Numbered from the stretch's first letter, positions 15,450-60,596 are shown. The stretch: 64,000 nt of DNA from Candidatus Magasanikiibacteriota bacterium (GCA_036744835.1 DAIOHD010000001.1:547910-611909), one strand, 5' to 3'. The notes: a model not told the origin generated them from the sequence alone. A program made the numbers and translations.

Positions 15450-16253
15450 TTATAGGGAAACCAATGGTTTCCCTTTTTTATTTACCAAATAATAAATCGC
15501 GGAAAAAATGATAAACGGTAAACTAAGCCATTGTCCGGCAGTCAAGATGTTTTCCCAAGAAGTTTGATATTCTTTGAAAAATTCCAGTAAAAATCGCGAA
15601 GAAAAATAAAGAAATAAAAATAAATTGAAAATAGAACCGGATCGCCAAGCAGTTGAATACTTTTGGTATACAAAATATAAAATAATAAAAAGTATCCAAG
15701 AAACAAGCATTTCATAAACTACTACCGGGTGACGCAAAAACTGAATTTGTTCTGCGCGAACAAAATACACCCCCCAAGGAACAAATGTGACTCGCCCCAA
15801 AATCTCGGAATTAAAAAAATTACCCAAACGAATAAAACCTGCTAGCAGAGGAATAACTACCACTAAAGTGTCAGCAATATTAAAAAAATTTTTCTTTTTA
15901 AAATAACCGTATGCAATAACCGTTAAAATAATACCTATTGTCATCCCATGACTACTAAGTCCGCCATGGTTGATAAAAAATATTTCTAACGGATTTTGTA
16001 AATAATAGGCAAAACCGTAAAAGAAAATTTCACCCATTCGTGCGCCGACAAGACCACCTATTATAAGCCAGATACATAAATCTAAAACTTGATCGGAATT
16101 CCAACCTTTTTTCTTGAATAAGTTTATCAAAACCAAAACTGACAGCGCTATTCCCGAAGCCAAAAAAACTCCGTACCAGCGGATAGAGATAAAGTCTGAT
16201 TGGAAGATTATTGGATTGAGATTATTGGTAAACATACTCGTGTAGTATAACAA
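15450..16253 (-). CDS. lgt: Prolipoprotein diacylglyceryl transferase
   Basis: Polytopic membrane protein with the Lgt signature RLGNFFNSEILG. Confidence 0.8.
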   Translation of the reverse strand: MLYYTSMFTNNLNPIIFQSDFISIRWYGVFLASGIALSVLVLINLFKKKGWNSDQVLDLCIWLIIGGLVGARMGEIFFYGFAYYLQNPLEIFFINHGGLSSHGMTIGIILTVIAYGYFKKKNFFNIADTLVVVIPLLAGFIRLGNFFNSEILGRVTFVPWGVYFVRAEQIQFLRHPVVVYEMLVSWILFIILYFVYQKYSTAWRSGSIFNLFLFLYFSSRFLLEFFKEYQTSWENILTAGQWLSLPFIIFSAIYYLVNKKGKPLVSL

Positions 16254-16470
16254 AAAGATTACAAGATTACAAAAATTACAAGATTGAAAGATTAAATAAG
16301 ATACGAAATACGAAATTATACGAAATTACGAACCGAAATTAAAAATTGATAATTAAAAATTTATTAAAAATTGTAAAATTAAAAATTAAAAATTTTAACT
16401 ATATTAAAAAGAATATTTTTATAATAAAAAACCACCCTGATTTTAACATCAGAGCGGTTTTAATTATTCT

Positions 16471-16602
16471 TTATTTTCCACAATCACATCCACAACCACA
16501 AGTTTCTTCTTCTTTTTCTTCACACTTGCCGTCTGGACCGCAGTCACAGCCTTCTTTACCACATTCACAAGGTTCTTGTGGGTTTAGTTCATCTAAGTTC
16601 AT
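16471..16602 (-). CDS. Small Cys-rich metallothionein-like peptide (43 aa, 9 Cys), not in the ORF track
   Basis: Reverse-strand ATG at 16602 gives MNLDELNPQEPCECGKEGCDCGPDGKCEEKEEETCGCGCDCGK* (CxC/CGC clusters). A perfect TTGACA-17-TATAAT promoter sits immediately upstream. Confidence 0.45.
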   Translation of the reverse strand: MNLDELNPQEPCECGKEGCDCGPDGKCEEKEEETCGCGCDCGK

Positions 16603-16643
16603 AGTTTTTGTTTACGGCTACTAAAAGTAGCTACTCGGGGTAT

Positions 16644-16672
16644 ATTATAGCACATTTTGGCAGTTTTGTCAA
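16644..16672 (-). promoter_or_regulatory. Consensus sigma70 promoter overlapping a TTGRC-N6-GTCAA palindrome (shared motif, copy a)
   Basis: Minus strand reads cTTGACAaaactgccaaaatgtgcTATAAT. The plus-strand motif is gcacattttggcagttttgtcaag. Confidence 0.6.
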
Positions 16673-16836
16673 GGTCTTAATTTAGCTAGTTATAGCCAAA
16701 TTAAGAATTATAAAAATTACAAAGATTACAAAAATTACAAAGATTATGTTTTTTGGCTAATATTAAATAAAAATAAAAAACCGCTAAAATTAGCGATTTT
16801 TCAATTTATTTTTTATTAATTCATAATCTTACCAGC

Positions 16837-17274
16837 TTACAAACTTTTAATTTTCCTATACTTCTTCCCCACTACTGCACGATTCATCTCTTTTTCAATC
16901 ATTGCTTGGATTCTGGCATATTCCACATCTTCTACGTTTTTGATTTGTTGCAAAAGTTCTTCAGCACGAGCTCTGGAAGCTTCGGCACGTTCCACATCAA
17001 TTTCTTCCGCACGTTCAGCTGAATCCGCAATCAAAAAAAGTTCGTTGTTTGGCCTCATTTCCAAAACCCCTCCGGATAATGCTAAATCGGTTTCATAACC
17101 ATCTTTGTAAATGTTTACCTCTCCAGAATCTAAAACCGATACCATGGCTTCATGCTCAGGTAAAATAGTTACTTCTCCAGATTTTGTCGGTAAGGTGACT
17201 TTCTCTACTACATCTTCGTAGATAATACCACCCGGAGTAACAATGGTTAATTTAAGTGTTTGTTCTTTGTCCAT
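16837..17274 (-). CDS. atpC: ATP synthase F1 epsilon subunit
   Basis: Position after atpD and epsilon-type sequence. Confidence 0.85.
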   Translation of the reverse strand: MDKEQTLKLTIVTPGGIIYEDVVEKVTLPTKSGEVTILPEHEAMVSVLDSGEVNIYKDGYETDLALSGGVLEMRPNNELFLIADSAERAEEIDVERAEASRARAEELLQQIKNVEDVEYARIQAMIEKEMNRAVVGKKYRKIKSL

Positions 17275-17276
17275 AT

Positions 17277-19645
<2,369 letters not shown>

Positions 19646-19646
19646 A

Positions 19647-21149
19647 TTATCTTAAAAATTGTTTTTGAAAATCTTCACAAGAGTTTTTCAACTCCTTTTC
19701 TATTTCTTCATCCCATTGTTTTTTTGCAATTTTTTCCAACAATGATTTTTTGGAATTATTCATAAAAGTCAAAAATTTTTCTTCTATCTCTCTGATATTT
19801 TTGACTTCTACTGCATCAAAATAACCGTTGTTAACCGCAAAAATTGAAACTACCTCTTCTTCCATCGGATATGGTTTATATTGTGGCTGTTTGAGAAGTT
19901 CGGTCAGTCGTTGGCCACGGTCAATCTGTTTCTTGGTTTCCGGATCCAAATCAGAGGCAAATTGAGCAAAAGCTTCCATTTCTCTAAATTGTGCCATGGC
20001 CAATTTCAATTTACCAGCAACTTTTTTCATCGGTTTGGTTTGAGCTGAAGAACCGACACGTGATACGGATAAACCGACATTGAGCGCCGGGCGAATACCA
20101 CGATAAAATAAATCTGTTTCCAAAAATATTTGACCATCAGTAATGGAAATCACGTTGGTCGGGATATAAGCAGAAACATCGCCAGCCTGAGTTTCAATAA
20201 TTGGTAGCGCTGTGATAGAACCGCCACCGTTTTCTTTATTGAGACTACAAGCGCGTTCAAGTAAGCGAGAATGTAAATAAAACACATCCCCCGGGTATGC
20301 TTCGCGACCTGGTGGACGACGAAGTAAAAGAGAGATTTCTCTGTATGCCCAAGCTTGTTTAGTCAAATCATCATAAACTATCAAAACATCTTTACCTTTA
20401 TCGGCAAAATATTCAGCCATGGCTACCCCTGCATAAGGAGCTAAATAAGACATTGGGGCCGGTTCAGAAGCACCAGCCATCACTACCACGGTATAATCCA
20501 TAGCGCCAGTTTCTTGAAGTTTGGCTACCAACCTGGCAATTTTGGATTCTTTTTGTCCAACCGCTACATAAATACAGATCATGTCTTGTCCTTTTTGATT
20601 GATAATAGCGTCAATTGCCAAAGCGGTTTTACCGGTTTGTCTATCACCGATGATAAGTTCACGTTGACCGCGGCCTATCGGAATAAGTGCGTCCACTGCT
20701 TTGACACCAGTCTGCACCGGACGAGACACCGGTTCGCGAGTCATAACCCCCGGAGCGATTCGTTCCAACGGATAAAAATCTTTAGTTTTTATATCGCCTT
20801 TACCATCCATTGGGATGCCCAAAATATTCACAACACGACCAATAAGATCTTCTCCAACCGGTACAGATAAAATACGACCAGTTCGTTTCACCAAATCACC
20901 TTCTTTGATTTGTTTGTAATCACCCAAAATAATAGAACCAACGGTTTCTTCTTCCAAGTTAAGAACCACGCCATACACACCACCGGGAAATTCAAGCATT
21001 TCTTGAGCTTGGCAATTTTCCAAACCACTCATACGCGCAATACCGTCACCAACTTCAATAACAGTTCCGACTTCTTCCACTTGCGCTTGGCGTTTGAAAG
21101 ATTCGATATTGTCTTTGAGCGCTTTGATAATTTGATTGGTATTTGACAT
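19647..21149 (-). CDS. atpA: ATP synthase F1 alpha subunit
   Basis: GDRQTGKT P-loop. Confidence 0.95.
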
Positions 21150-21157
21150 AACAAAAT

Positions 21158-21544
21158 TTATATTAATTGTTGTTTTAATTTATTGATTTGTGTTTTTAAA
21201 CTAGCATCAAAAATCTTATTTCCAACTTCAACTACCGTACCACCTAATATTTTTTCATCAATTTTAGTTTTAACTTCACCTTTGAGCGATAAAAATTTTT
21301 TTATCTCTTCTATGGTACTATCCGAAAGTTCACGGGCACTTTTAATAGTCGCTTTTTCACTTCCTTGCATCTTGGCAGAATAAATTTCAAAATCCTTGAT
21401 AATATAAGGGATTTTGTTTAAACTCTGATTTTTATGAAGCAAAGCAACAAAATCCGAAATATGTTTTTCAAGCTCTTTACCCGACAATCCAATAGTCAGG
21501 GTGTGTAAAATTTTGGCGTATTGCAAAGGTAAAATCTTTTGCAT
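21158..21544 (-). CDS. atpH: ATP synthase delta (OSCP) subunit, short form
   Basis: Operon position between atpF and atpA. 128 aa. Confidence 0.7.
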
Positions 21545-21546
21545 AA

Positions 21547-22056
21547 TTATTTTTTGATTTTTTCTACAATAGATTTGACGTATTTGGCGTCATCAGCAGC
21601 TTTAAGATTTTCACCCAAAACTTTTTCTGTAACCAAAGAAATCAAACCAACGGTTTCTTTTTTCAATTCTTCCGTCATTTTTTCTTTTTCCGCCAAAATA
21701 GTGTTTTTGGCTTCAGTCACTACTTTTTGTGCTTCTTCTTTGGCTTTATTTTTTGCCAGCTCTACCGTAATCTTGGCTTCATTTTGAGCTTCACCCATCA
21801 AATGGTTAGCCATCAAACGACTTTCATCCACTATTTGTTGAGCGGTTTGTTTGGCTACCGATACTTCAGTCTGAGCTTTATCAAAATTCTCCGATGTCTC
21901 TTGCGCTTTCTTTTGGCGTTCCTGAATAATTTTCATCAATGGTGCAAAAGCAAATTTTTTCAAAATCCAAAAAGCCACGAGAAAATTTATAAGATTGAAC
22001 AAACTCATACGCCAATCAAAACCGACTTTACCTAAAATTTCTAATAATTTTTCCAT
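21547..22056 (-). CDS. atpF: ATP synthase Fo subunit b
   Basis: Single N-terminal TM helix plus a long charged coiled coil. Confidence 0.75.
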   Translation of the reverse strand: MEKLLEILGKVGFDWRMSLFNLINFLVAFWILKKFAFAPLMKIIQERQKKAQETSENFDKAQTEVSVAKQTAQQIVDESRLMANHLMGEAQNEAKITVELAKNKAKEEAQKVVTEAKNTILAEKEKMTEELKKETVGLISLVTEKVLGENLKAADDAKYVKSIVEKIKK

Positions 22057-22124
22057 ATATTATTTATAATTTGTGTTTATGGGCACCGCCAAAAAAATTT
22101 TTGACGGTAAACAAAACGCAAAAT

Positions 22125-22340
22125 TTAGACGATAAAAAAACAAACGAAAGCGTAAATAGCTGTTGATTCAGCCATGGCTACCCCGATAATCATTTTGGAA
22201 AAAATACTTCCTTCCATTTTCGGGTTGCGACCGATAGCTTCGAGAGCTTTACCGATAAGATAACCTTCGCCGATAGCGGATCCTCCCATGGTGATGGTAC
22301 AAAGACCCTTGGCGATAAGACGTGCGACTTCAATATCCAT
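22125..22340 (-). CDS. atpE: ATP synthase Fo subunit c
   Basis: 71-aa two-helix hairpin proteolipid, GRNP loop, conserved carboxylate helix. Confidence 0.85.
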   Translation of the reverse strand: MDIEVARLIAKGLCTITMGGSAIGEGYLIGKALEAIGRNPKMEGSIFSKMIIGVAMAESTAIYAFVCFFIV

Positions 22341-22369
22341 AAAAATAAATTAAATAATTTAATTTTTTG

Positions 22370-23161
22370 TTAATTAGTTTTTATCTTTTCCGTATCAACT
22401 GCCAAACTATAAAAAGCGGCAATAAGCGATCCAAAAACCATAGTTTGTACTACTGCAGCCAATAAGCTCATAAAAAACCACGGGAGAGGTAATAGTAGAG
22501 CGAACATCCCAAATAAAATAGCGGTCAAAACTCCACCTGCATACATATTACCAAACAAACGCAAAGACAAGGATATGACTCTGGCAATTTCTGAAACTAT
22601 ATCAAGTAATCCGATGATAAAATCCACTATTGCCATCATTCCTTTGCCAAAACCTTGTTTAAATCCCAAATAAATTTCTTTAAATTTTAGATATTTTCCA
22701 ATGTGTCCAAAAATCCCAGCGTCTCTGATGCTCTCCAATTGAATCAAAATAATCATAGATAAGGCCAAGCCAAAAGTAACATTAAAATCACTAGTGTGAG
22801 TACGAAAAAAATAAATACCGTTGTAAGTAAACTCCGACAATATTGGAATAAGACCCAATAAGTTTGATAATCCTATGTAAACAAAAAGCGCACCGACCAA
22901 CGGCAGTGTTTTAATGGCAAAGCTACGACTACCACTAATCTGTTCAATAAGGTTAAAGAAGGCTTCGGTTAAACTTTCGGCCATGGATTGAAATTTACCA
23001 GGAATAAATTTAATTTTAGAAGAAATAATAAAACTACCGATAGCAATCAAAAACAACACGAGCAATCCGGAGGTCATTGAATTGGTAAATTCAAAATTAC
23101 CGACTTTAAAAAGTGTGTCCGGTCTGATAGGTGCGACTTGTGATTCAACTTGAAAAAACAT
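22370..23161 (-). CDS. atpB: ATP synthase Fo subunit a
   Basis: LSLRLFGNMYAGG motif carrying the essential Arg. Confidence 0.85.
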   Translation of the reverse strand: MFFQVESQVAPIRPDTLFKVGNFEFTNSMTSGLLVLFLIAIGSFIISSKIKFIPGKFQSMAESLTEAFFNLIEQISGSRSFAIKTLPLVGALFVYIGLSNLLGLIPILSEFTYNGIYFFRTHTSDFNVTFGLALSMIILIQLESIRDAGIFGHIGKYLKFKEIYLGFKQGFGKGMMAIVDFIIGLLDIVSEIARVISLSLRLFGNMYAGGVLTAILFGMFALLLPLPWFFMSLLAAVVQTMVFGSLIAAFYSLAVDTEKIKTN

Positions 23162-23164
23162 ACT

Positions 23165-23431
23165 TTAATTTTGTTTTTTATTTTCTTCTTTTTCTAATTC
23201 TTTAAATTCACGAGAAATTTTGAAATACAATTTAAAAGCCAAAAACCAAGAAAAAATAAAAGCCCCCAATAATAGAGGCCATATAATATTAAAATTTACT
23301 ATTTCTTTTTCTTGTAAATATTTTCCTAAAAATAAAGCCCCGAACGCCGGTGCAGCAAAAATTACCAAAATCTCAAACATTGCTTTGAACGTTTTATGAA
23401 CTAACGCTTGTTTTTTTTCTTCAGGGTTCAT
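23165..23431 (-). CDS. Small membrane protein, AtpI/AtpZ-like
   Basis: 88-aa two-TM protein immediately upstream of atpB. Confidence 0.4.
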   Translation of the reverse strand: MNPEEKKQALVHKTFKAMFEILVIFAAPAFGALFLGKYLQEKEIVNFNIIWPLLLGAFIFSWFLAFKLYFKISREFKELEKEENKKQN

Positions 23432-30108: not shown

Positions 30109-30792
30109 TTAAAAGTATTTTTCTCTATAAAACCTAATCAATTCTTCAATAGATGGAATTATATCCGGTTTGCTAGCCCCAACTTTGAGTTTCTTTTGGA
30201 TATCCTCCAATGTTTGTGCACCATCAAGAACAGCGTCTTCAATATCTTTATCTGTAATCTTCAAATCAGGGTCAATAACTTTTGACCCCTCCACTATTAT
30301 TCTACCATGTTGCTTAGTTTTGCGAAAGTAGTCGTTTAAGGCTGCTTGCAAAGCTTTGTCTCCCAAAACTGAGCAATGAACTTTACGATCGGGCAGTCCG
30401 CCGAGCTCTTTCATAATATCTTGAGGTTTAAGTTTTAGTGCATCATCAATTTTCATTCCACCTTTTCTTTTTATCATTTCACTCAATACTGAGGTAGAAG
30501 CAATGGCGCTACCACAACCAAAAGTTCGCCAACGACAATCTTTAATTTTTTCCGTTTTTGGATCTATTTGAAGCCAAAGAACCATTTCATCTCCACAAGC
30601 CGGAGAGCCAACCCGACCATAGCCGTTAAATTTAAACTTTTTTTCTTCACCAAAACGCATGAAATTACGTGGATTGAAAAAATGATCTTTCACTTTATTG
30701 GTGTAGAGCCAGCCAGTAGTACCGTCTTTATTACGAACATCAAAAGATTTTTTTACTCTGGTTGGTTTTTTAATTGTTTTTTTCTTAAGCAT
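30109..30792 (-). CDS. nifU: Fe-S cluster scaffold NifU/IscU-like with a C-terminal extension
   Basis: GSPACGDEMVLWL ... FGCGSAIASTS IscU cysteine motifs. Confidence 0.8.
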   Translation of the reverse strand: MLKKKTIKKPTRVKKSFDVRNKDGTTGWLYTNKVKDHFFNPRNFMRFGEEKKFKFNGYGRVGSPACGDEMVLWLQIDPKTEKIKDCRWRTFGCGSAIASTSVLSEMIKRKGGMKIDDALKLKPQDIMKELGGLPDRKVHCSVLGDKALQAALNDYFRKTKQHGRIIVEGSKVIDPDLKITDKDIEDAVLDGAQTLEDIQKKLKVGASKPDIIPSIEELIRFYREKYF

Positions 30793-30835
30793 ACTTTATT
30801 TAATTTTAAATTTTCAATTTTGCAATTTTTATTTT

Positions 30836-30922
30836 AGTTAATTTTTAATGTAACAATTTACAAACTGAACATTGATAATTGAAAATTGATAATTAATTAA
30901 AAATTTTAAATTAAAAATTGAA
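30836..30922. repeat. ~86-bp AT-rich repeat, copy B, between nifS and nifU
   Basis: See copy A. About 95% identical. Confidence 0.6.
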
Positions 30923-30925
30923 AAT

Positions 30926-32158
30926 TTATTTATATTTCGGATGTTTCTGATTTGCCATGTTCACCGGACTGATTTCGCGCAATAATTTCACAATTTCCGG
31001 TAAATATTTCATCATGTAATCAATATCTTCTTTGGTGTTTTCTTTTCCAAGTGAAAAACGTAAACTACCGTGGGCATATTCATAAGATAATCCAATAGCT
31101 CGTAATACATAAGAAGGTTCCAAAGATTCTGAAGTACACGCCGAACCAGTAGAACACATTATGCCGTATTCATCCAAATAAAGTAACATGGCTTCGCCTT
31201 CCACATCTTCAAACGTAATATTTACGTTGTTGGGTAAACGATCATCCCCTATTTGTGGCCCATTGAGTCTAACTTTGTCTATTTTTTTACTAACTTGTTG
31301 CCATAAATAAGCGGATAATTTACGAACTCGCGCAGATTCTTTTGGGCCGGATTTTTGCGCTAATTCTAAAGCTTTAGCTAAACCTATAATTCCCGAGACA
31401 TTTTCCGTACCTGCGCGAACCTTTTTTTCTTGTGCACCACCAAAAACAAGTGGTTTGATTTTTACACCGCGACGAACGTATAAAACACCCGTTCCTTTGG
31501 GGCCATAAATTTTACCACCATTTATAGTCATCAGATCTACATGTAGTTTTTCGGTGTCCAAATTAAGATAACCGGCCGCCTGGCAAGCATCGGTATGAAA
31601 ATAAGGATAAGCGGTTTTATTTTCTTTGCGATATCGCAAAAGTTCACGACCAATTTCAGCTATCGGTTCAATCGTGCCGATCTCATTATTGGCATACATA
31701 GTAGAAATCAAAATGGTGTCCGGTCGAATCGCTTTAATAATATCTTTGGCGGAAACTTTTCCTTCTTTATCAACTTTGACATAAGTGATTTCAAAACCTT
31801 GTTTTTCCAATTCTTCCAGAGGGTGCAGGACGGCATGATGTTCAATGGAAATAGATATAATATGTTTTCCAATACTTTTATGAGCTTGGGCAATACCGAA
31901 AATCGCTAAATTATCCGATTCTGTACCGCTGCCGGTGAAAATAATATTTTCAGGAAGCGCATGAATAATTTCAGCCACGGTTTTACGAGCCAACGAAATA
32001 GCCGATTGTGCTTCTCGGCCAATTTTATATAAAGATGAAGGATTACCAAAAACATCCGTAAAATACGGCATCATGCTTTTAACCACTGTTTTATCAACCG
32101 GAGTGGTCGCAGCATGATCAAGATAAACTTGACGGATTTTTTTTGGTTTAGATAACAT
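30926..32158 (-). CDS. nifS: Cysteine desulfurase (NifS/IscS)
   Basis: PLP-dependent class V fold. SLGKEN near the C-terminus and an active-site Cys region. Confidence 0.9.
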   Translation of the reverse strand: MLSKPKKIRQVYLDHAATTPVDKTVVKSMMPYFTDVFGNPSSLYKIGREAQSAISLARKTVAEIIHALPENIIFTGSGTESDNLAIFGIAQAHKSIGKHIISISIEHHAVLHPLEELEKQGFEITYVKVDKEGKVSAKDIIKAIRPDTILISTMYANNEIGTIEPIAEIGRELLRYRKENKTAYPYFHTDACQAAGYLNLDTEKLHVDLMTINGGKIYGPKGTGVLYVRRGVKIKPLVFGGAQEKKVRAGTENVSGIIGLAKALELAQKSGPKESARVRKLSAYLWQQVSKKIDKVRLNGPQIGDDRLPNNVNITFEDVEGEAMLLYLDEYGIMCSTGSACTSESLEPSYVLRAIGLSYEYAHGSLRFSLGKENTKEDIDYMMKYLPEIVKLLREISPVNMANQKHPKYK

Positions 32159-32197
32159 AACTTTATTAAAAAATTGAAAGATTTAAAGATTGCAAGA

Positions 32198-32587
32198 TTA
32201 CAATTGAGTAAGTTTAGTTTTTGATAAAATTTTCAAAATATCATCATTAATTTTTTTCATTTTATCTTTTAAACAACATTTAATATTTTTACATTTTTTC
32301 GTCGCGCAATAACAAGGTAGTACGGCGCAACCACCCTCCATCGCTACGATAATATCTTTTAGCGAAATTTCTCTAGCAGATTTTGCCAAAGAATAACCTC
32401 CGTTTACTCCGCTAGTAGCTTTTATCAATCCAACTAAACGCAATTTACGCGCAATTTTTTGCAAAAAAAGAAATGAGACACCGGATTGTTTGGCAATATC
32501 TTTCAAGCTAATACAATATTTCTTGTCTTTGGGGACAAGTTTTAATAGTTGAATAGCATAATCGGTTTCTTTATTCAAAGTAAACAT
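32198..32587 (-). CDS. Rrf2-family transcriptional regulator (IscR-like)
   Basis: Rrf2 helix-turn-helix plus a Cys cluster (CYCATKKC). Heads the nifS-nifU-fdx operon. Confidence 0.75.
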   Translation of the reverse strand: MFTLNKETDYAIQLLKLVPKDKKYCISLKDIAKQSGVSFLFLQKIARKLRLVGLIKATSGVNGGYSLAKSAREISLKDIIVAMEGGCAVLPCYCATKKCKNIKCCLKDKMKKINDDILKILSKTKLTQL

Positions 32588-34862: not shown

Positions 34863-36110
34863 TTATTTGATTTTTTTTAATAATTCTTCAAACTTTACTA
34901 TTGCAGATTCTTCACTATTTCTAGCCTTTACTTCAACCCCTCCCTTTTCCATGGTTTTTTTGGAAACAACAACTCGATATGGCAAACCTATAAGATCAGC
35001 GTCAGCTAATTTTTCTCCGGCAGAAGCATTTTCTCTGTCGTCATACAAAACTTCGATATTTCTTTTCAATAACTCCTGATAAATTTTTTCCACTTCTGTT
35101 TTACTTTCTTCTTCTTTACCTAAAGACATCAAATGAACTTTATAAGGAGCTACACTTTCTGGCCAGATAATACCTTTTTCATCATTATATACTTCAACAA
35201 TAGTCCCCATGATACGAGAAGGGCCGATGCCATAACATCCCATTTGTGCGACTTGTTGCACCCCTTTTTCATCCTGATACAAAAACTTAAACGGCGTGGT
35301 AAATTTATCCATTAATTTAAAAATATTACCAACTTCTATAGCTTTTTCTTCTTTAAGATCTTTATTACCGCATTTTGGACAAACACTTTGCTCATTGGCA
35401 ATTTCTTTATTAACCGCCACTTGGCATTTTTTACAAACATAAATAGTGTCTTCGCCAGATTGCGCCAAAGTTTGATATTCATGGGAATATTTGGAAAATG
35501 CACCACCAGAAGCATAAGTCAAAATCGTCCGACCACTTCCTAAACCTAAACGGTCATAAACTTGATAATAAGATTTAATAACTTCTTCATAATATCTATT
35601 TAAATCTTTTTCGTTTGCATGAAAAGAATACATGTCTTTCATGCGAAATTCTCTGCCCCGTAAAAGCCCGGATTTAGCTCTAGCTTCATTGCGAAATTTG
35701 GTCTGAATCTGATAAGCACAAGCTGGTAAATCCTGATAAGAAAAAACAAATTTTTGCACCAATGGAGTGACAACTTCTTCATGGGTCGGATTCAAAACAA
35801 TTTTTGATTCCCCGGCTCCGGAAGTATGATAAAAAACATCAGCCAAAGTTTTATCGCGTCCAGTGATTTCATAGCTTTCTTCCAAAGTCAAAGCAGGCAT
35901 CAAAATTTCATTTCCTCCAGCTTTATCCATTTCTTCACGAATAATATTTTCAATTTTATTAAGTACTCTGAGTCCAAGCGGTAAAAAAACATAAACCCCA
36001 GCCATTTGTTTGGTAATAAATCCGGCTTGGGTCAAAAGTTTAGCATTAATACTATCAGCATCAGAAACAGCAGTTTTGCTAGTTTTGGTAAAAAGTTGAG
36101 AAAATTTCAT
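34863..36110 (-). CDS. proS: Prolyl-tRNA synthetase, short form without an editing domain, with a Cys4 ribbon insertion
   Basis: N-terminus aligns with bacterial ProRS (AKLLTQAGFI.., LPLGLRVLNKIENIIREEM). CKKC..CPKC insertion. Anticodon-binding C-terminus. Confidence 0.8.
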   Translation of the reverse strand: MKFSQLFTKTSKTAVSDADSINAKLLTQAGFITKQMAGVYVFLPLGLRVLNKIENIIREEMDKAGGNEILMPALTLEESYEITGRDKTLADVFYHTSGAGESKIVLNPTHEEVVTPLVQKFVFSYQDLPACAYQIQTKFRNEARAKSGLLRGREFRMKDMYSFHANEKDLNRYYEEVIKSYYQVYDRLGLGSGRTILTYASGGAFSKYSHEYQTLAQSGEDTIYVCKKCQVAVNKEIANEQSVCPKCGNKDLKEEKAIEVGNIFKLMDKFTTPFKFLYQDEKGVQQVAQMGCYGIGPSRIMGTIVEVYNDEKGIIWPESVAPYKVHLMSLGKEEESKTEVEKIYQELLKRNIEVLYDDRENASAGEKLADADLIGLPYRVVVSKKTMEKGGVEVKARNSEESAIVKFEELLKKIK

Positions 36111-36373
36111 ATATTAAGTTAATAAATGTTTTTTCGTTTCACTTATTATAAATGTTTTATCGTTTCGCTTGTTCCATTGCAACAATTAGAACATTTACAA
36201 CAATTAAAACTTCTCGGAAATTATACTAAAATAACCTACTTTTGTCAAAAAACCTTAAAAAATTTTACTCTAAATTATACCAATATTTAAAACTGCTTTA
36301 TTTGACGAAATCTAAAATAAATCATACACTTTATACAGCACCTTAACATTTTTCCTTTACAAGGGAGGATCTC

Positions 36374-59939: not shown

Positions 59940-60488
59940 TTAAATTCCACATTCTCCACGAAATAACGCCCATTCTTCGCAAACTTTACCACCAGGTAGC
60001 GTACAATAACCAATCTGACCATCTATTTCATCTTTGATTTCCAAAACTCCGCCTAATTCTGTACAATGTACAGAAGCCGGATTGGCTAGACCGGTTTTTC
60101 CGCCTTGTTTACACTCACCACTATAAGAAATCTCCACTCCCGTGCATTTGGCACCACAAGCATTGCCATAAGTTTTACCATCAATTCCACAAACTGGTGC
60201 ATATTCCATAGTACATATACAACCTTCTTCCAGATTATCATCTTTTTTTTCTGAATAAATAGCATCTCTTAGGTCATTACATTCTCCGTCATAACGCTTA
60301 GTAGTTCCGGCTTTTTCCATAAAACATTCATTTACATAAGTATAATCATCTACAGCACAAACTTTTTTAATTTCTAACGGACAATTTTCTAAATTTTTTA
60401 TCAAATTTTTAAAATAACACATACTACTTCCATAAGCTATGGAACCAACCACCAAAAATACTACCGCTAAAATTATGATTTTCTTCAT
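59940..60488 (-). CDS. Secreted protein with two Kazal-type inhibitor-like domains and a C-terminal DUF333
   Basis: Signal peptide [20 protein letters not shown]. Kazal motif [27 protein letters not shown]333 motif [39 protein letters not shown] start at 60488 is preferred over the GTG at 60518. Confidence 0.6.
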
Positions 60489-60596
60489 ATTTAATTTTTT
60501 ATTATATATATTAAACACCTTTATATAATAAATCTGAATAGAAATTAAGTCAAAAAATTAAAAAACCAACCTTTGAAAAGGCGGTTTTTTCTGTTT

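Follow-up and report, generated by a model that had tools for sequence, protein, structure and literature searches.

Can an open reading frame (ORF) of only 43 codons, too short to appear in default gene tracks, be a genuine gene, and if so, what might its product do? We address this question for a locus in a 64,000-nucleotide (nt) stretch of DNA from Candidatus Magasanikiibacteriota bacterium (GCA_036744835.1 DAIOHD010000001.1:547910-611909), hereafter the window, in which an initial annotation made from the sequence alone had pointed to an unannotated, metallothionein-like peptide of 43 amino acids (aa) with nine Cys, encoded on the minus strand behind a perfect consensus promoter. Comparison with related genomes indicates that the peptide gene is real, protein-coding and under purifying selection. 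For its function we favour, in a judgement about evenly balanced between right and wrong, a highly expressed, monocistronic and cytoplasmic metal-thiolate peptide of the metallothionein type, the product of an undescribed family confined to a single lineage of Patescibacteria. ORFs of fewer than 60 aa, which default tracks omit, can thus rank among the best-supported genes in such genomes.

The ORF runs from ATG to TAA at 16602..16471 (minus strand), and its translation, MNLDELNPQEPCECGKEGCDCGPDGKCEEKEEETCGCGCDCGK, matches exactly the peptide reported earlier: 43 aa with nine Cys, no aromatic residues and no His. The start codon is fixed by an in-frame TAA 12 nt upstream of the ATG. At 21% Cys it leads all ORFs of 30 aa or more in the window, the runner-up having 12%, and none of 200 Markov-1 simulated 64-kb windows yielded an ORF of 30-60 aa with nine or more Cys (the maximum was seven).

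A word-indexed search of 5.8 billion proteins returned four close relatives (77-95% identical, 42-43 aa), while an exhaustive phmmer search of 1.84 billion representatives recovered two close relatives and none additional. Synteny-guided inspection and two profile iterations added relatives of 46-60 aa (ORFs in loci L020 and L022, and P0006-P0011), and profile searches settled at 12 clusters with no further growth. The family as assembled comprises 12 protein variants and 16 distinct alleles, 42-60 aa long and with 9-11 Cys. One further candidate, P0012 (93 aa, E = 5, from a 995-bp ENA contig), begins MNLNDILSFGHDCGCGPDCDCEKEEN and is unrelated thereafter; we excluded it from the family set as the likely product of a frameshift or of decay in a family member, or else of faulty assembly. 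Public metagenome gene callers had already called the exact peptide and its relatives, and the label "unannotated" stands only in the sense that none of them has been named or assigned to a Pfam family. The relatives derive from Patescibacteria genome bins, including "Patescibacteria group bacterium RA.bin39", which bears out the candidate phyla radiation (CPR)/Patescibacteria host proposed at the outset, and on the evidence of these searches the family is restricted to one Patescibacteria lineage. Two bins titled "uncultured Gammaproteobacteria" (L021 and L022) also carry the peptide gene, L021 with the gene order of the window and L022 on a 2.1-kb sequence that holds only the end of atpC and then the peptide gene; both bins are probably taxonomically mislabelled.

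The ORF, its reading frame and its Cys codons, the features whose conservation in related genomes the initial annotation had singled out as decisive, are all maintained. The sense frame alone among the six is stop-free in 16/16 alleles, Nei-Gojobori ratios of nonsynonymous to synonymous differences (pN/pS) range from 0.08 to 0.7, many substitutions are TGT/TGC exchanges or other third-position changes, and indels preserve the frame. Cys codons are kept among members that are just 45-54% identical in protein, and non-Cys residues are also under selection at the amino-acid level. Little or no variation is seen in the opening Met-Asn, in the acidic N-terminus, whose consensus is MNLDEL, or in the Cys of the CxC positions. 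When the DNA between the flanking genes, atpC and lgt, is aligned, the lineages are unalignable except for one island that begins at the -35 element, takes in the leader and ORF and ends in the terminator region. The 92-aa ORF antisense to the peptide gene, which had been suspected of being spurious, does exist in the window, but the two antisense frames that are open there are interrupted by stop codons in six homologous loci (L020, L022, L026, L028, L030 and L032), from which we conclude that it is indeed spurious.

What kind of peptide has been conserved in this way? As an operational definition, we took metallothioneins to be smaller than 10 kDa, to contain about 15-30% Cys in CxC, CxxC or CC motifs, to have no or scarce aromatic residues and to have few His. 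All members of the family, at 42-60 aa, lie below this mass. Cys accounts for 18-24% of their residues, essentially all of it in CxC motifs and in conserved alignment columns; Phe, Trp and Tyr are absent from 10 of the 12 variants, the other two having a single Phe; and His is lacking in the short forms and numbers one or two in the long forms. The Cys spacing of the long forms, C-x-C-x3-C-x-C-x4/5-C-x-C-x3-C-x-C-x3..7-C-x-C-x-C, resolves into two CxCGxxCxC modules and a CxCxC end, and these forms carry acidic C-terminal tails. The short forms, the window copy included, are missing one CxC pair. Further Cys positions vary, the window copy having Gly at position 25 where its close relatives have Cys25, and two Cys being absent from P0006. 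That individual Cys can be lost is more readily reconciled with a plastic thiolate cluster than with fixed structural zinc sites. Judged by sequence, then, the composition and Cys topology of the family are metallothionein-like.

"Metallothionein-like" is therefore fair as a description, given the Cys content, the CxC motifs and the few aromatics, but it does not extend to family membership, for which Pfam E-values were only 0.2-8.4. The sole Pfam hit of the window peptide was Metallothio_Euk at E = 8.4, with no Metallothio_5 match; Metallothio_5 (PF02067) was matched in 5/9 members, the best at E = 0.2 and far below the Pfam cut-off. These two metallothionein models were the only Pfam families to appear at all, in each case below cut-off. 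The initial annotation had recommended searching metallothionein profile hidden Markov models, and nothing rose above cut-off there. NCBIfam yielded 0 families at E <= 10 for nine members and nothing significant for the window peptide. By such searches the family belongs to no known family. Sequence and profile searches of the PDB returned matches to EGF and PKC C1 domains only, which we rejected as compositional and spurious. Two AlphaFold2 runs gave predicted local distance difference test (pLDDT) scores of 57.6 and 52.8, with models almost devoid of regular secondary structure; a low-confidence, structureless model of this kind would be expected for an apo-thionein.

The closest likeness among characterized peptides is to the dipteran Cu-thioneins of the MtnA type, which resemble the family in having about 40-55 aa, 20-25% Cys, all of it in CxC, and no aromatics. 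The spacing of Drosophila MtnA, C-x-C-x3-C-x-C-x8-C-x-C-x3-C-x-C-x7-C-x-C, is nearly that of the long forms, which depart from it in the middle linker (x4-5) and in one extra Cys. In a single pairwise BLASTP comparison all 10 MtnA Cys aligned to a long form with one gap (39% identity, E = 2e-5). The MtnA sequence that we used has a computed mass of 3997.54 Da, against a theoretical 3997.49 Da in PMC2864907. MtnA itself has been characterized as a Cu-thionein (PMC2864907). Unlike MtnA, the present family is bacterial and acidic (isoelectric point, pI, 4.1 versus 8.1), has a conserved Cys-free MNLDEL N-terminus and an extra terminal Cys, and in its long forms bears an acidic C-terminal tail. Because the comparison was chosen after the fact, we read the likeness as probably convergence rather than homology. 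The family could be the first CPR metallothionein family, convergent on the Cys topology of insect and fungal Cu-thioneins, a proposition that we place just short of evenly balanced.

Among fungal Cu-metallothioneins, the Neurospora crassa metallothionein and yeast Cup1 have repeated CxC motifs with Gly-rich spacers, and Cup1 is comparatively acidic with a short Cys-free N-terminal segment; we treat this as a lead only. Neither fungal protein was matched in the PDB sequence searches, and no homology to them was detectable. Closer in taxonomic terms are SmtA/BmtA (PF02069) and MymT of Mycobacterium tuberculosis, which are likewise small, cytoplasmic, Cys-rich bacterial peptides, SmtA sequestering Zn and MymT sequestering Cu. 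The smtA promoter is regulated, with an operator between the -10 element and the start codon. SmtA has His ligands, a zinc-finger-like fold and mixed CxC/CxxC motifs, whereas the family described here, confined to Patescibacteria, is acidic and has CxC motifs alone. Bacterial metallothioneins are few; according to PMC7387436, functional studies had by then covered SmtA and MymT alone. Our literature searches found no metallothionein or Cys-rich small protein described in Patescibacteria/CPR. One preprint mentions in passing a C-terminal motif of MtnF with BLAST similarity to an unspecified protein of Ca. Magasanikbacteria. If the peptide does bind metals, it would be the founding member of a new family of bacterial metallothioneins, offer a first handle on metal or thiol homeostasis in Patescibacteria and illustrate cleanly how convergence can arrive at the CxC-x3-CxC thionein architecture.

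Signals around the ORF suggest that the peptide is made in quantity. The promoter at 16672..16644 (minus strand), 5' of the ORF, agrees with TTGACA-17-TATAAT at 12/12 positions and has a 17-nt spacer and a TG before the -10 element; the "perfect consensus promoter" of the initial annotation stands and can be called extended. Only one other promoter in the window matches the consensus perfectly. Promoter-like sites with at most one mismatch are enriched (six found versus 1.17 expected in the window), and several of these precede genes and begin TTGACAAAA, which argues that this promoter type is in use in the organism. Across the family the core block TTGACAAAA-N-TGnTATAAT-ATACCYCGAGTAGC is nearly invariant, pairwise identity in the promoter core being 90% among the 12 protein variants versus 47% for the 30 nt upstream. 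Directly downstream of the -10 element, ATACCCCGAGTAGC is unique in the window and has a single variable position (C/T) across 15 alleles; judging from the distance to the -10 element, transcription probably starts at about 16637-16635. Patescibacteria are ultra-small, host-dependent cells with genomes of about 1 Mb, and that such a tiny gene is kept behind one of two perfect promoters in 64 kb suggests that it is important to the cell.

Upstream of the -35 element lies an inverted repeat, GGCTATAACTAGCT, whose counterpart in most related loci is GGCTAA-N3-TTAGCC and which may be a regulator site or an UP-like region. In L001, L013 and L025 it is displaced by a GC-rich palindrome inserted before the -35 element. 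These palindromes (CCCCGCTCAGCGGGG, with GTCACGCTAAGCGTGAC and GCCACGCTAAGCGTGGC nearby) sit directly upstream of the -35 element in the three loci, occur in some lineages while missing from others, and look like small mobile palindromic elements. The half-sites TAGCC/GGCTA are common to the upstream inverted repeat and to a hairpin in the leader. One regulator could bind both, though their arrangements differ and show no consistent co-variation. Both the inverted repeat and the invariant block at +1..+14 are candidate sites for a regulator and could be operators.

RNA folding of nine family leaders placed a hairpin of 5-7 bp in every one, 3-5 nt from the presumed 5' end. Its 3' arm varies by clade (AGUAGC, AGGCU or UGGCUA), such that a hairpin persists in spite of changes in sequence and register. 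Taken singly, the sequences have weak z-scores (-0.01 to -1.9), and, with the register shifting between clades, no formal covariation statistic was applied. The hairpin may serve as a stabilizer of the mRNA 5' end or as a protein-binding site. The remainder of the leader has no Shine-Dalgarno sequence. That is the rule in this genome, where a Shine-Dalgarno-like motif precedes just 4 of the 54 window ORFs that reach 120 aa and the sequence upstream of ORFs is rich in A/T.

At the 3' end, a hairpin and T-run at 16461..16428 (minus strand) begin 9 nt past the stop codon. What had been described as an imperfect hairpin has 14 RNA pairs once G-U pairs are counted, with a folding free energy (dG) of -21.4 kcal/mol and z = -8.35, and 0/200 shuffled sequences fold as well. 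All homologues have a GC-rich hairpin and T-run directly after the stop codon, differing in sequence by lineage. Rfam searches gave nothing relevant around the peptide gene at E <= 1, nor in the whole window at gathering thresholds. From these signals the mRNA would be short (about 215 nt, from about 16636 to about 16420), monocistronic and abundant.

The mechanism that we propose joins these two lines of evidence. A perfect extended sigma-70-type promoter, a 5' hairpin with an open A-rich leader and a strong terminator would together lead to large amounts of a peptide that, on its own, would be disordered. Its 9-11 thiolates, arranged in repeated CxC-x3/4-CxC units ending in CxCxC, would then wrap several soft metal ions, whether Cu(I), Zn(II) or Cd(II), and the resulting metal-thiolate cluster would act as a metal buffer or store of the metallothionein type. 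High expression, metal binding and the identity of the metals are features that we infer from sequence.

A number of observations weigh against this proposal. The peptides contain 27-39% Asp and Glu and have a pI of about 4.1, in contrast to the basic MtnA (pI 8.1), and thiolate clusters would render them still more negative. If the peptide simply soaked up metal, neither the conserved Cys-free MNLDEL N-terminus nor the strict adjacency of the peptide gene to lgt across a rearrangement of the surrounding genes would be accounted for. Neither the window peptide nor any of the nine members searched has a significant match to any metallothionein family; Metallothio_Pro (PF02069, the SmtA/BmtA family) is not listed at E <= 10 for the nine members, and no solved metallothionein was matched in searches of all PDB entries. 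The alignment with MtnA was picked post hoc, and short Cys-rich sequences align easily; the low AlphaFold2 confidence may merely reflect a shallow alignment. The promoter looks constitutive, though the +1..+14 block and the inverted repeat could be operators. Finally, the surroundings of the peptide gene revealed no metal transporter and no recognizable metal sensor, whether among the nearest genes (by Pfam) or in the rest of the window (by eye).

Some of these same features might be better explained by a small Cys-rich protein that handles cofactors, redox equivalents or sulfur, whether as a protein thiol buffer, by carrying persulfide or Fe-S, or as a zinc-dependent adaptor for a partner protein. 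The coding and conservation evidence would serve this explanation equally, and the extreme acidity, the acidic tails and the conserved MNLDEL suggest a protein-protein interface more than a mere sponge for metal. The window also contains genes for Fe-S assembly, at about 30.1-32.6 kb. Many biosynthetic pathways are believed to be missing from Patescibacteria, a lack for which such a protein could compensate. However, CxC is not the usual Fe-S motif nor the usual redox motif (CxxC), the number of Cys varies between members, and AlphaFold2 predicts no fold. Nor is there conserved linkage to redox or Fe-S genes, those in the window being 14 kb off and only lgt being consistently adjacent. We consider such a role rather unlikely.

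The division of the peptide into a Cys-free start and a Cys-rich remainder is also what a precursor of a ribosomally synthesized and post-translationally modified peptide (RiPP) would show, with MNLDELxxxE as the leader and the Cys-rich part as the core of a ranthipeptide, a SCIFF-like peptide or a thioether peptide, matured by an enzyme encoded elsewhere. The first 10 residues contain no Cys and are kept as amino acids although their codons undergo synonymous change, while the Cys-rich part is more variable; precursors of SCIFF peptides and ranthipeptides likewise have 40-50 aa, with no Cys at the N-terminus and a C-terminal part rich in Cys. MNLDEL also presumably resembles the FNLD/ELxxxL boxes of lanthipeptide leaders, a likeness that we regard as a lead only. 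Unlike SCIFF and ranthipeptide precursors, however, the family is highly acidic and has neither an NCBIfam match (no precursor family among the nine members at E <= 10) nor an adjacent radical-SAM maturase. No ORF with the CxxxCxxC motif of radical-SAM type occurs in the 64-kb window, and no maturase, protease or exporter, ABC exporters included, is adjacent to any family member in at least 12 loci representing two upstream contexts; nor was a gene for peptide maturation recognized in the vicinity, the nearest genes being covered by Pfam and the rest of the window by eye. The leader would be merely about 10 aa long, the long acidic C-terminal tails are atypical of such precursors, and the core cannot be that of a lanthipeptide because it has almost no Ser/Thr. 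A RiPP precursor is on these grounds improbable.

The one constant of the neighbourhood is lgt. In the window and its closest relatives the order is atpA-G-D-C, the peptide gene, lgt, a gene for an INT_rpt protein on the opposite strand, and a UvrD-RNase T fusion; in all family loci the peptide gene lies directly upstream of lgt and is co-oriented with it, and throughout them the neighbours are atpC or TatD, lgt, the INT_rpt protein gene and the UvrD-RNase T fusion. In L025, L028 and L029 the upstream neighbour is instead TatD, preceded by genes for a Memo/PGA_cap protein and CvpA. The genes for TatD, Memo/PGA_cap and CvpA are found in the window just upstream of the atp operon, which indicates that the atp operon was inserted or deleted between TatD and the peptide gene. 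The operon (16837..23431) separates TatD from the peptide gene in the window lineage and is absent from that position in the three other loci, which amounts to an insertion, a deletion or a relocation on the scale of an operon within the clade. The adjacency of peptide gene and lgt survives this rearrangement. It may reflect either gene order inherited within one family-level clade or a functional link, and the former is plausible because Lgt is 69-87% identical to that of the window across the family (the peptide, 45-95%).

If the link were functional, the peptide could be something other than a passive metal store, namely a new, small and Cys-rich factor, expressed at a very high level, that is linked to the maturation of patescibacterial lipoproteins. 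It could, for example, mimic the substrate of Lgt or modulate the enzyme in a thiol- or metal-dependent way. We raise this because the adjacency outlasts operon-scale rearrangement and the MNLDEL N-terminus is conserved in the manner of an interaction motif, and we regard it as distinctly improbable. Put more broadly, to cover both attenuation of lgt transcription by a Cys-sensing leader ORF and modulation of Lgt by a small peptide, the connection is in our judgement highly improbable. In its favour, the peptide gene is always upstream of lgt and co-oriented, whether atpC or TatD precedes it, the ORF is rich in Cys codons and ends 9 nt before the terminator, and Lgt acts on a Cys thiol. Attenuation would require that lgt have no promoter of its own, with an alternative antiterminator structure, yet lgt has a conserved extended -10 element (TGTTATACT or TGnTATAAT) 6-8 nt before its ATG, also in L007, L013, L027 and L030. 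The distance from the peptide stop codon to lgt varies between about 80 and 220 nt, and the sequence is unalignable past the terminator. Given the peptide terminator, this variable spacer and the conserved -10 element, lgt is probably transcribed separately, and the atpC terminator, the peptide terminator and the lgt -10 element together mark the peptide gene as a separate transcription unit. No alternative antiterminator pairing was evident by inspection, and the non-Cys residues are under amino-acid-level selection. On the strength of the separate lgt promoter and the variable spacer we rejected the peptide as a leader-peptide attenuator of lgt; for a modulator, the adjacency may be mere inherited order in a family-level clade.

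That the island is an untranslated small RNA gene or regulatory element with an incidental ORF is scarcely credible, for although the promoter and leader are better conserved than the ORF and the short transcript would have a 5' hairpin at one end and a terminator at the other, every allele keeps the sense frame open, unlike the other five, substitutions fall mostly at synonymous sites with indels in frame, the Cys codons persist at 45-54% protein identity, and Rfam has no match.

The metallothionein-type reading thus remains the one we prefer, and the features of the locus on which it and its alternatives draw are collected in the following table.

Table 1. Features of the peptide locus and its flanks; positions count from the first nucleotide of the window.
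Feature	Position	Strand	Remarks
CDS (coding sequence) of the acidic, Cys-rich 43-aa peptide	16471..16602	-	Stop codon TAA at 16473..16471; 9 Cys in CxC motifs
Predicted tryptic peptide, NLDELNPQEPCECGK			
Inverted repeat GGCTATAACTAGCT upstream of -35	16684..16697	-	Unique in window
-35 hexamer TTGACA, within invariant TTGACAAAA	16667..16672	-	Unchanged in all 15 distinct promoter alleles
Extended -10, TGC-TATAAT	16644..16652	-	TATAAT unchanged in all alleles
Invariant ATACCCCGAGTAGC: discriminator, probable transcription start and first transcribed bases	16630..16643	-	
5'-proximal leader hairpin GCUACU-UUU-AGUAGC	16617..16631	-	RNA folding
A-rich unstructured leader, no Shine-Dalgarno sequence	16603..16616	-	
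Intrinsic terminator of the peptide gene	16418..16461	-	14-bp stem including G-U pairs, 6-nt loop, T-run
lgt extended -10, TGTTATACT	16252..16244	-	8 nt before ATG
lgt, prolipoprotein diacylglyceryl transferase	15450..16235	-	Pfam LGT, E = 2.7e-62; invariant downstream neighbour
atpC, last gene of the atp operon	16837..17274	-	Pfam ATP-synt_DE_N and ATP-synt_DE; upstream neighbour
atpC terminator	16803..16774	-	
Antisense 92-aa ORF	16346..16624	+	Spurious

The true start of lgt is the ATG at 16235 (MFTNN...), because the TTG start at 16253 given in the ORF list is not conserved, L013 having an in-frame stop there. With an extended -10 element only 6-8 nt before this ATG, the lgt mRNA is probably leaderless. 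Tandem repeats of 8-10 nt (TTGTAATYTT, minus strand) occur at 16255-16294 and 16706-16747, flanking the peptide gene on both sides, and the L007 spacer has a different repeat, TCTCTTAAATC, in the same place.

Elsewhere in the window, the Fe-S assembly cluster (30109..32587, minus strand) consists of an Rrf2-family regulator with seven Cys (Pfam E = 2.2e-26) and ORFs of 410 aa resembling cysteine desulfurase and of 227 aa resembling NifU; it lies 14 kb from the peptide gene and is not linked to it. The second perfect TTGACA-17-TATAAT promoter, at 36220..36248 (minus strand), is about 105 nt upstream of a 415-aa ORF resembling class-II aminoacyl-tRNA synthetases (34863..36110), and the leader behind it matches nothing in Rfam, nor is any small ORF in it convincing. 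A 192-aa ORF at 59940..60518 (minus strand) has a hydrophobic N-terminal segment and 15 Cys and is possibly a secreted or surface Cys-rich protein.

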